Below, piece after piece: positions 52,401-55,400 of a DNA stretch of 64,000 bases. This stretch comes from Oculina patagonica (Eukaryota). The stretch covers positions 9,858,001-9,922,000 of the forward strand of contig NC_135769.1 in the NCBI RefSeq assembly GCF_052425735.1, written 5' to 3'. A program made the position numbers and the translations under genes. Numbering within the stretch: the stretch's first letter is position 1; the number at the start of each line of letters is the position of its first letter. The notes under the pieces were generated by a model. The model did not search any database, had not been told where the DNA came from, and worked only from the letters and a program-made list of their open reading frames with translations.

Positions 52401-55400
52401 CAAAGGACAGCACAGTTCGTGTCTGGTCGCTTACTACAGAAGAATGTCAAGCTGTGTTTGAGGGCCATGCAAGCTCTGTTCTCTGCCTGGTGTTGACACG
52501 TGATGGCGAGAGTGTTGTATCCGGCTCGGAAGACAAGACTGTCAAAGCCTGGCATCTGAAAACAAAGAACTGCGCTACCCTAAAAGGCCATGGAGGTAAG
52601 ATAAGAAAACTAGAGCCACTCTCAATTTGGAAATGTGTCCGAAAATTGACTTAGCTTGTGACTGTTTTGTCAGTAAGGTTGCTAAGCAATATGACGTACC
52701 TTATGGCGTCATGCTGACTTCATATCCATATGCTGTTATGATTTCATTGAAGCAATGGAAGCGGCTTCGAGTTCTTCAATGAAAATTTTCTTAAAAACTA
52801 AACGATATTTGTATTCGTGACGCAAGAAATCAGGGGTAAAGTGCCTATACTAAATGACTTGTTCTCGTGTTTGGTAGTGACATAATGGTACATACATATT
52901 AATGGGATCTTTTGTTATATGGATTATGAAATGCTGCCAAACTATTTAACGACAAAAATAAAATTGTTTTTTAAAGTTCCTTAACGGAAACTAAAGAGAT
53001 CGATACTGCTTAGTTTTAGTTACAATACCCACATGTCTTACAATGTTGCCACAAATTGTCGATTAACCCTCTGACGTACAAGGGGGGGGGGGGGTGGATG
53101 CCACCCCCCCATAAGGTTTCTTCCAAATTTTGAAAAGAGGATTTTATCTACAATGCTGAAACTTTCAGTAGCTGTTAATTCATCCTTTACGGAAATTTTA
53201 ATATGTCAACCATGTGTCCATGATATTTGACGTTGCCATGGCAACGTCATAAATACAGGCAGGTCTTGCCAAAAATCGACATTTTTAACATTTTTCTTTA
53301 TTTTTTCCAGTTTTTTGAAACAGAAGTGCAAGATTTGTTTATTTTTACATTCCATAAGCATTCTGGCTTGATTTTGCATCAATTTCCGTTATTTTGTAAC
53401 TTTCTAAGAAAATGTTGAAATCCAAGATGGCGGATCCAAGATGGCGGCTCAAATGACGTCACGTGACGTCATAGGACGTCACAGCCAATTAAAATTATGT
53501 CATCTTGTAGAGTAAGCAAAGGGCTTTCTTATCAGTGTAAAATAATCTCGCTACGCCTTAATATAACGAAAACTCCGGGGAGGGGTTCCATCCACCCCCC
53601 CCCCCCCCCTTGTACGATGGTGGGGGTGTGAGTTTGCTTGTACGTCCGAGGGTTAAAGGTTTTTTATATAATAGAAAAGCTATGCCACGATATTCAAATC
53701 GATTTTTTTTCATGTACTGAATAACTGTACTTTTAAGTTAAATGAAACTTGAAAAATAAGACTAAACAACCTCAGTCATGACAAATAAATGAAATGAGAC
53801 ACTGTGAATCCTGGCCACTGAAAAAAATTCAGTGGTGAATTTTTTTTCAGTGGCCAGGATTCACAGTGTCTCATTTCATTTATTTGTCAAGACTAAACAA
53901 GGACGGTTACAACTGTGGAAGATAACGACAGATAACGAGTAACAAATTGTCCGTGACGTAACTCTTTTAAATGAATGAAGTGATTCCCTGCAAATCCTGG
54001 CCACTGAAAAAAATTCAGTGGCTCAGGTGGTACTCAAACCCACGATCTTCGGGACTTGCATGGATTACATGGATTTGCAGTTTATCACTTCATTCGTTTG
54101 TTCGAATGAGGATGGTTCTAAACTAGCTCTTTAAAGTGCATGAAATTAGACCGTCCGTCATCGGATAAACAGAGCCTGGTTCTCACCAAACGTAATCACT
54201 ACATTCATACCCCCTTTCTTTCGTAACCTCGAATGAGTGGGAACTTTGACTGTGTTGCATGCAAAGCGTCATGGGGTTGTAAGAGACATAAATGTTATCT
54301 TTTTGCAGGTTTGGTCAAGTGTTTTGCCGCTATGCATGATGGTCGGCGAATAGTGTCTGGATCGAAAGACCAGTCATTGAAGATCTGGGATCTCGTCACT
54401 CTTCAATGTTGCGTGACTTTAAAGGGTCACACCGACCTTATTTGGCGCGTGGCCGTTGCCTCAGATGACAGTTTTGTCGTGTCAGCCTCAAAGGACGACA
54501 TGTTAAAAGTGAGTCTTCTTTTTACCTACTTCTTGGCTCATTATTCTGATTTCAGCTGTTTTCCATGCAGGTTCTCACTTCCGAGATTGGTGTGCTGAGG
54601 TTTATACTAATTTTAACCTCATGCTAATCTCTGCAAAACTAGTGTTCTTGGTGCCCCTTATTTTGTACAGGGTACACTTCTGTATGTGATATTCCCAGCT
54701 CTCTTTACGAAAAGGATAGATGGATAGAGCGTTTTCATATGACATCCGGCAGCCATATTGGGAAAGAAACGGGGCCAAGACGGCAGCCATATTGGTGTAC
54801 CAAACCAGTCCTCCGGGAGGTGAACTTTATTTTTATGCAAACCTCATCTTTTGTTTCAGTAAACCAATATGAACACTGGTCACGCGAGTGAAAAAGCTCT
54901 CTAGTGAGGAATAAGGAAAAATTATTTCAAATGATGTATGACAATCTTCTTGCAATGACTCTATAGATTATAAGATCATTAAATCCCCCTTTAAACAGAA
55001 AGAAGCAAAACTTTGTTATGCTTCCCTTTGGCCATTTTATCGGTAGTTTTAATTTCTGAAAAACAGAGGTGACACGGATGGCTGTGTGCACACCACACAA
55101 CAGTGTCGCCGGGGTCTAGCACGACCTGTTGATAAATGGATCGTTGCTTCCCACCGAGGGGTTTTGTCTTCAGGTTCCCGGGTTTTTCTTCCCACCTCAA
55201 AACCATCATTTCCAAATTGAATACTGTAAATATCTTAGAATAGGTGACGAGAGCCATGTGCATGTTTCACTAAAATCTCCGTGTTACTTTTATAATCTTA
55301 TTGTCGTTTTCCATTTTTTATTTCGATAGGTCTGGAATCCAGTCACAGGTGAATGCCAACAGACCTTGATTGGCCACTCATCCTGGATCTCCTGTGTTTC

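Follow-up and report, generated by a model that had tools for sequence, protein, structure and literature searches.

A young two-armed insertion in an Oculina patagonica intron belongs to a non-coding 281-nt repeat that pairs a predicted type III hammerhead with a tRNA-like gene

The intronic insertion and its relatives in the window

The window analyzed here, that is, the whole stretch of 64,000 nucleotides, contains several copies of a 281-nt repeat, two of which lie in one intron of a NACHT-WD40 gene. The younger of the two is an insert of 119 nt (53770-53888) flanked by perfect 12-bp target-site duplications (TSDs; 53758-53769 and 53889-53900), as the original prediction had stated. It is a 5'-truncated, two-armed copy of the non-coding repeat, in which a tRNA-like gene is combined with a predicted hammerhead of type III. 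Unit positions are numbered from the base after the predicted hammerhead cut (position 1), and A and B denote the two classes of 3' end described below. The features of the locus are as follows.

52598..54308, plus strand: host intron of the NACHT-WD40 gene (Pfam; the frame joins 52597 to 54309), containing both of the 53.8-54.1 kb insertions
53758..53769, plus strand: left TSD of the young insert, 12 bp, one copy in the empty-site contigs
53770..53835, minus strand: inverted arm, unit 243-281 then 1-28; B-class "tailed" end in the hammerhead core, without the GAAA half
53836..53888, plus strand: forward arm, unit 247-281 then 1-18; A-class short end in hammerhead loop 1
53889..53900, plus strand: right TSD of the young insert, 12 bp
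53969..54062, minus strand: older insertion, arm that includes the 3' portion of the tRNA-like gene, unit 204 to 15; A-class end; about 86% identity
54071..54126, plus strand: older insertion, opposite arm, unit 268 to 43; B-class end; about 79% identity; imperfect flanking duplication

Both arms of the 119-nt insert point outward with their 3' ends, and the plus arm ends 10 nt before the minus-arm end. The arms form 54 nt with 98% complementarity, and a fold of -84 kcal/mol is predicted for 53771-53888, in keeping with the hairpin of about 50 bp proposed for this intron. Since neither arm has a complete hammerhead, the intronic hairpin is probably neutral. In the minus arm, the sequence that ends the copy at 29.4 kb passes directly into the CTGAGG core, as had been noticed from the sequence. 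The proposed contiguity of tail and hammerhead start is therefore real, but the tail precedes the core as the 5' half of the same predicted hammerhead, and what had been called "tail" and "start" are two halves of one ribozyme. The two arms had also been said to share almost the same 3' endpoint; they use instead two different preferred sites. The intron also contains, at 53450-53657 and shortly upstream of the insert, a very high-copy repeat.

An empty site, in which 53757 is joined to 53889 (with 12 ambiguous bases), was found in contigs of three of four public runs, the fourth having zero coverage there, and the empty site sought with the original prediction is thus present in related samples. 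The empty-site contigs skip 131 nt, corresponding to the insert plus one TSD. As these three runs carry other organism labels than the best-matching run and their flanks are about 4% diverged from the window, the insertion at 53770-53888 is either younger than the split or polymorphic, and it is young relative to the related samples. The inference of recent activity from high identity holds for this insertion, but the family as a whole ranges from about 78 to 100% identity and is not only recent. What was described as a third tRNA-like fragment about 100 bp away does belong to the same family, but it is actually the older two-arm insertion at 53969-54126, with an imperfect duplication.

The copy at 29.4 kb is bounded by a 12-bp TSD of its own and carries a short inverted arm:

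29338..29349, plus strand: left TSD of the full-length copy, 12 bp
29350..29363, minus strand: tail-only inverted arm, unit about 19 to 33
29360..29669, plus strand: full-length copy that starts at unit position 6 and continues round to the A site, a little over one unit in all, with a private 10-nt duplication in helix II
29377..29424, plus strand: hammerhead core CUGAGGA with the extra U, followed by helix II, GAAA and the 3' strand of helix III
29540..29621, plus strand: tRNA-like gene containing A and B boxes; this copy is decayed (ARAGORN negative), while the gene is intact in other copies
29617..29642, plus strand: hairpin around a T7 run, the main zone of 5' truncation
29650..29669, plus strand: helix III 5' strand, helix I 5' strand and loop 1, with the predicted cut after 29656 (structure prediction)
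29670..29681, plus strand: right TSD of the full-length copy, 12 bp

Other repeats of the window include long inverted repeats at 1394-2424, 3238-3396, 7771-7974, 16464-16612, 31892-32038 and 40008-40182, a 12/15-nt minisatellite array at 16790-17700, and inverted copies of one repeat at 17866-18131 and 31440-31751.

The 281-nt unit, its tRNA-like gene and its predicted hammerhead

Searches of the coral's own genome, each of which scored its best 40 candidates, yielded 53 distinct loci taken from the best-scoring hits, and all counts below refer to this sample. Two duplicated loci (L010 and L218) were dropped before counting, and L219 was additionally dropped from the end counts. The copies are dispersed and 0.2-2.4 units long, and the seamless 281-nt unit consists of the tRNA-like gene, then a hairpin containing a U run, then the hammerhead. 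Two-armed insertions make up 32 of the 51 loci and single-arm insertions the other 19. Twenty arms exceed one unit, the longest measuring 688 nt, and an arm spanning unit positions 10-28, i.e. the tail-to-start junction, is present in 41 of the 51 loci. Two complete hammerheads in tandem were found at a single locus (L008; 1/51), with the reservation that collapsed arrays could be absent from the assembly, and there is one adjacent pair among the 18 exact hammerhead cores genome-wide. Relaxed core patterns matched only the 281-nt family and one isolated core of the type found in Penelope-like elements (PLEs). A metagenome pattern scan for the element gave one chance match only. Contigs of two presumed RNA runs contain pieces of the element at low depth, several of them inside long contigs, and were not taken as a sign of expression. 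An open reading frame of 76 codons in the unit is probably due to chance. A recurrent G5A change (6 of 65 passes) was considered as a sign of selection and rejected, as it ranks only 4th of 52 non-CpG G positions. One family copy contains a nested 211-nt inverted-repeat element (L014 1777-1987), and an atypical one (L112 1378-1622) has two arms whose starts (positions 1 and 5) both lie at the predicted cut and whose ends are at 175 and 73.

The tRNA-like gene, with A and B boxes, is located at unit positions 173-245 approximately. ARAGORN recognized it in 19 of 31 loci, mostly as Ala-TGC and twice as Thr-TGT, and the Rfam tRNA model scored 54 bits in both L002 and L008. The two boxes suggest transcription by Pol III from the tRNA-like gene. 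Its source tRNA gene was not found in the tRNA search, which returned mostly an unrelated SINE; this very abundant, conventional tRNA-headed SINE (L224-L251) dominates the search, with 53,253 rough candidates. The tRNA is internal and not a 5' head, as no excess of arm 5' ends can be observed at its start (4 of 92, against 4.3 expected). No poly(A) or simple-repeat tail was present on the curated insertions of the family.

The predicted hammerhead begins with the 5' strand of helix III and GUC, continues through helix I, closed by a loop of 14 nt, to CUGAGGA and an extra U, and ends with helix II, GAAA and the 3' strand of helix III. All core bases (CUGANGA, GAAA, UH) are present together with the three helices (helix III of 7+4 bp, helix II of 7 bp and helix I of 4 bp), and the extra U follows A9. 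PLE hammerheads are likewise described as having a long helix II, a short helix I and an additional base following A9 (PMC4209133). The fold is compact only as type III; a local type I reading lacks U16.1, and a type I hammerhead would be possible only with the remainder of the 281-nt unit as loop III. The cleavage base differs between subfamilies, being GUA in the older one and GUC otherwise, and only the allowed C and A occur. Arm 5' ends are also enriched near the predicted cut (unit 274-6), where 16 of 92 lie against 4.6 expected, a count that includes some BLAST breaks and some ends using microhomology. The cleavage base and these ends both speak for activity. The folding z-score is -2.78. 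The structure predictions are mixed: helices II and III are stable, helix I has a probability of about 0.06 in a fold prediction that leaves out tertiary contacts, and the minimum-energy fold pairs the core away (-20.0 versus -15.3 kcal/mol for the hammerhead fold). Helix I is reduced to 2-3 bp in the older subfamily. The Rfam hammerhead models gave no match at E<=1, nor at E<=10 on 110 nt. The missing Rfam match, the competing fold and the weak helix I of old copies speak against activity.

Insertion ends and Penelope-like machinery

The ends were curated by eye and adjusted for TSD overlap, and the end windows were set after seeing the data. With these windows, 74 of the 83 outward 3' ends of the 51 insertions fall into two groups, whose modes lie about 17 and about 42 nt after the predicted cut. 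The A site (unit 12-21) received 38 ends and the B site (unit 28-60) 36, of which 24 map to 37-46; the two sites are thus about 25 nt apart. No 3' end was located at unit 22-27, and nine of the 83 lie outside both windows. Among the 32 two-arm insertions, 24 have one end of each class, a single one has long ends on both arms, and in seven an end falls outside the windows. Where both ends are in the windows, one A is therefore combined with one B in 24 of 25 inserts (permutation p 5e-6). Loose contig ends from other samples, among the 24 listed, mark the A site in four of four runs and the B site in two of four. TSDs were recognized in 31 of the 51 insertions and are 10-16 bp long (median 12). 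The 5' ends of the arms pile up at the U-run hairpin (26 of 92, against 10.8 expected). In five loci (L001, L052, L012, L026 and L213) arms stop at unit 16-20, being either tail-only to the A site or almost exactly one unit long; such stops could reflect a reverse transcriptase (RT) colliding with another RT on a shared RNA, or microhomology with helix I.

The original prediction had asked whether the endpoints are random and whether other copies span the tail-to-hammerhead junction. The ends are clearly non-random and the junction recurs in the 41 loci mentioned above, which together indicate that the template is a seamless RNA of more than one unit. The proposal of a tandem or circular source RNA with a preferred priming site is upheld as far as the template is concerned, but there are two sites, used one per arm, and this points to a Penelope-like machinery, which had not been named.

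According to the portion of PMC8557442 consulted, the hallmarks of PLEs are an inverted 5'-truncated copy, partial tandems and a tail of 30-40 nt on one end; TSDs of 9-10 bp are given in the consulted part of PMC3846280. In vitro work on an anole PLE, as covered by the consulted part of PMC11167929, explains the tail as the segment that separates two internal RT start sites; nicks were made and extended on both target strands, and uncleaved RNA was used and was the dominant substrate. The 281-nt family combines the same features, namely an inverted truncated arm, partial tandems, a variable TSD of about 10 bp and a one-sided tail, here of about 25 nt against the published 30-40 nt (PMC8557442, same portion). 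The near-strict rule of one short and one tailed end also agrees with the anole result (PMC11167929, as far as consulted).

The genome is rich in PLEs, several families of which target microsatellites and have longer tails. Many intact families (L113-L163 and L252-L353) show minimal hammerheads, inverted pairs and one-sided tails, several of them within microsatellites. The partner search consisted of a search for GIY-YIG families and two PLE protein searches, followed by a comparison of hammerheads and tails. A resident family that combines an RT with a GIY-YIG domain at its C terminus (both weak Pfam hits), and which may belong to the Penelope/Poseidon clade, has one short and one +27-nt end with TSDs of 12-17 bp in nine of 12 two-arm loci, the remaining three having no TSD. 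Its tail is the start of its open reading frame. The best PLE tail resembled the 281-nt repeat with a shuffle p of 0.07 and a block-shuffle p of 0.36, and no significant 3'-sequence match was obtained with the PLE loci fetched (150 of 860 and 150 of 2619 candidates scored). As this resemblance is not significant, the resident family shows the type of the partner and not the partner itself. A short motif shared at the A site was likewise rejected as partner evidence because it is not significant, and a PDB search with the resident PLE protein gave no match. A 1371-aa open frame with a GIY-YIG domain, present in nine of ten near-identical copies (L121-L130), is not PLE-like and may represent a Polinton-type element.

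A second family lends itself to comparison. A pattern combining the tRNA 3' end and the hairpin gave 275 matches, and most of those listed belong to a 251-nt cousin that aligns with the 281-nt repeat in the tRNA-like gene, the U-run hairpin and the upstream segment. The cousin forms seamless tandems and has two 3' ends about 45 nt apart, but no hammerhead core. One end of each class was found in 11 of its 12 two-arm loci (two of which are probably one duplicated locus), and TSDs of 12-16 bp in 11 of 21 loci. It is abundant, with PLE-type inverted insertions (L384-L413, e.g. L394 1448-1698 and G000 C3:24142342-24144246). Since a family without a hammerhead shows the same pattern, permutation and tailing do not need the ribozyme, and since it is equally permuted, the junction alone does not show a ribozyme-made circle. 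Together with the missing Rfam match and the competing fold of the core, the cousin speaks against treating the repeat as a simple retrozyme.

Template, competing explanations and related elements

Our preferred explanation, to which we assign a probability of roughly 0.78, is that PLE-driven priming at two sites on a seamless RNA of more than one unit made the insert. Pol III would start at the tRNA-like gene and read through the hairpin-flanked U run, and the hammerhead would cut slowly or incompletely, leaving multimers that are cut once and, by ligation, circles of 281 nt. The PLE enzyme would introduce nicks about 12 bp apart into the two target strands and would begin reverse transcription at two points of the RNA, one per strand: loop 1 (about +17) and stem-loop II (about +42). 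The two cDNAs would stall, often at the U-run hairpin, and then be joined, while occasional rolling-circle copying could rebuild source copies with two hammerheads. Read-through of such a source copy may give both once-cut multimers and circles, and a mixed cycle of this kind would fit both of the following sets of template data.

The circular step within this scheme has, in our view, about even chances. L012 carries a private double change in both arms, for which a DNA foldback offers no explanation, and L008 carries a private 12-nt deletion in both of its units; these shared private changes, together with the single adjacent pair of cores, favor a one-unit, circular template. Conversely, the five long arms that begin at unit 3-6 require a linear once-cut multimer, and each of the four arms that run through the hairpin once more ends within the tRNA-like gene (at 193-222), without reaching the predicted Pol III start. 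Both observations count against circles. Private changes in the redundant stretches are mostly unshared (58, against 5 shared), a pattern that post-insertion decay would produce and that favors neither template.

The strongest competitor keeps the PLE machinery and replaces the mixed templates with linear read-through of a tandem source locus only, the hammerhead trimming some 5' ends or being a passenger. We regard it as a serious possibility, albeit with somewhat less than even chances. It agrees with arm 5' ends at unit 1-6 in eight of 92 cases and none upstream of 193 on the second pass, with the tandem arrays and the same ends of the hammerhead-less cousin, and with the dominance of uncleaved RNA for the anole PLE in vitro (PMC11167929, as far as consulted). 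Its difficulty is the source: the assembly contains no array with intact cores other than L008, whose private deletion excludes it as parent of the others, and one unit should be lost per linear round, yet subfamilies succeed each other. The private changes common to both arms of L012 also stand against it.

Template jumping is known for other retroelement RTs. An RT that jumps from the 5' end of one doubly cut linear monomer to the 3' end of the next would account for seamless junctions and for stops at unit 1-6. However, priming at +17 and +42 would leave only 17-42 nt, so that nearly every arm would need a jump, and most of the 41 spanning loci have junctions without slippage; we consider this improbable. 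Even less credible is an ordinary LINE-dependent tRNA SINE with twin-priming inversions and a coincidental hammerhead. The tRNA-like gene, the variable TSDs, the 5' truncation and the lack of an Rfam ribozyme would suit such an element, but the internal tRNA, the missing poly(A) or simple-repeat tail and the full core with three helices do not, and the end mapping, in which both arms overlap the same end region with two fixed ends, largely refutes it. Finally, a foldback DNA transposon (MITE) or an assembly artefact, suggested by the near-perfect inverted repeat that the 119-nt insert forms when taken alone, is refuted by the variable lengths, asymmetric ends, 10-16-bp TSDs, 19 single-arm insertions and the empty site in other runs, and the repeat is moreover unrelated to the coral CMITEs in the consulted part of PMC2872659.

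Among the closest known systems are the animal non-LTR retrozymes, which have a low-GC non-coding unit of 150-450 nt with one hammerhead and occur in corals (PMC7229834 and bioRxiv 10.64898/2026.07.22.740005, as far as consulted). The likeness covers the small non-coding one-hammerhead unit, the head-to-tail permutation, TSDs longer than 4 bp and the proposed PLE partner (PMC7229834, same text). Type I is described as the usual form of animal hammerheads, and promoters as apparently missing from retrozymes (PMC7761336); the animal retrozymes in these sources are of type I and reach 62-mers in coral arrays, whereas the 281-nt repeat is predicted to be of type III, is dispersed and has an internal tRNA-like gene. 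Expression as linear and circular monomer RNA is a further mark of animal retrozymes; for the 281-nt repeat the circle is a proposed step.

The schistosome elements SM-alpha and Sj-alpha similarly combine a Pol III promoter with a hammerhead, the promoter lying toward the 3' end of the cut unit (PMC6765202, consulted part). With this arrangement, common to them and the 281-nt repeat, more than one unit is needed. SM-alpha, however, has a type I hammerhead (PMC6155905), and the consulted descriptions of it (PMC6765202, PMC6155905) contain neither a two-site tail nor inverted two-arm insertions. PLEs and their non-autonomous derivatives (such as MRC1) share the inverted truncated arm, partial tandems, one-sided tail and TSD of about 10 bp (PMC8557442, PMC3846280, in the parts cited above). 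PLEs encode an RT and endonuclease, which the 281-nt repeat lacks, and its start sites lie inside the hammerhead, whereas the ends of the resident PLEs are located about 50-150 nt downstream of theirs. Plant LTR retrozymes have a type III hammerhead too, but also LTRs, PBS, PPT, 4-bp TSDs and a Gypsy partner (PMC7761336, accessible text), none of which was seen in the 281-nt repeat. tRNA SINEs, with a 5' tRNA head and a LINE-type 3' tail, differ from it in both respects and share the A and B boxes. In short, the repeat works like an animal retrozyme or an SM-alpha moved by a PLE, except that the compact fold of its predicted hammerhead is type III, not type I. No element combining a tRNA promoter, a type III hammerhead and a PLE-type tail was found in the literature searched, in which subscription papers are mostly missing and Repbase is absent; the 281-nt repeat may figure in the supplements of PMC7229834, with its 16 coral hammerhead families, or of the 2026 preprint.

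The argument that animal retrozymes are non-autonomous PLE derivatives has so far been made from co-occurrence and pLTR homology (bioRxiv 10.64898/2026.07.22.740005, as far as consulted), whereas in the present repeat it is the insertion scars that bear the PLE signature of two start sites. With this repeat the animal repertoire would gain a type III fold and a Pol III-type promoter located internally, its 281-nt RNA would offer a minimal substrate for testing two-strand priming by PLEs and the rebuilding of more-than-unit copies, and the hammerhead-less 251-nt cousin provides a natural control for the contribution of the ribozyme. A wider and tentative proposal, which we consider unlikely as a whole, is a coral superfamily of permuted PLE parasites with tRNA promoters. 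In the present member, one 85-nt fold would serve as a circle-making type III hammerhead and would also contain both start sites of a dimeric Penelope enzyme, supplying both strands of one site from one RNA.

Two further groups of hammerhead sequences were encountered. A 182-nt tandem sister shares the tRNA head and carries half a hammerhead, in antisense orientation and lacking GAAA; it forms short arrays within a larger repeated block (L359-L383, e.g. L369 1240-1933) and looks like a foldback product turned satellite. Canonical type I hammerheads of other families lie beside PLEs at L117, L118, L149, L157 and L160, the pair at L149 being about 243 nt apart, and are probably ordinary coral retrozymes.
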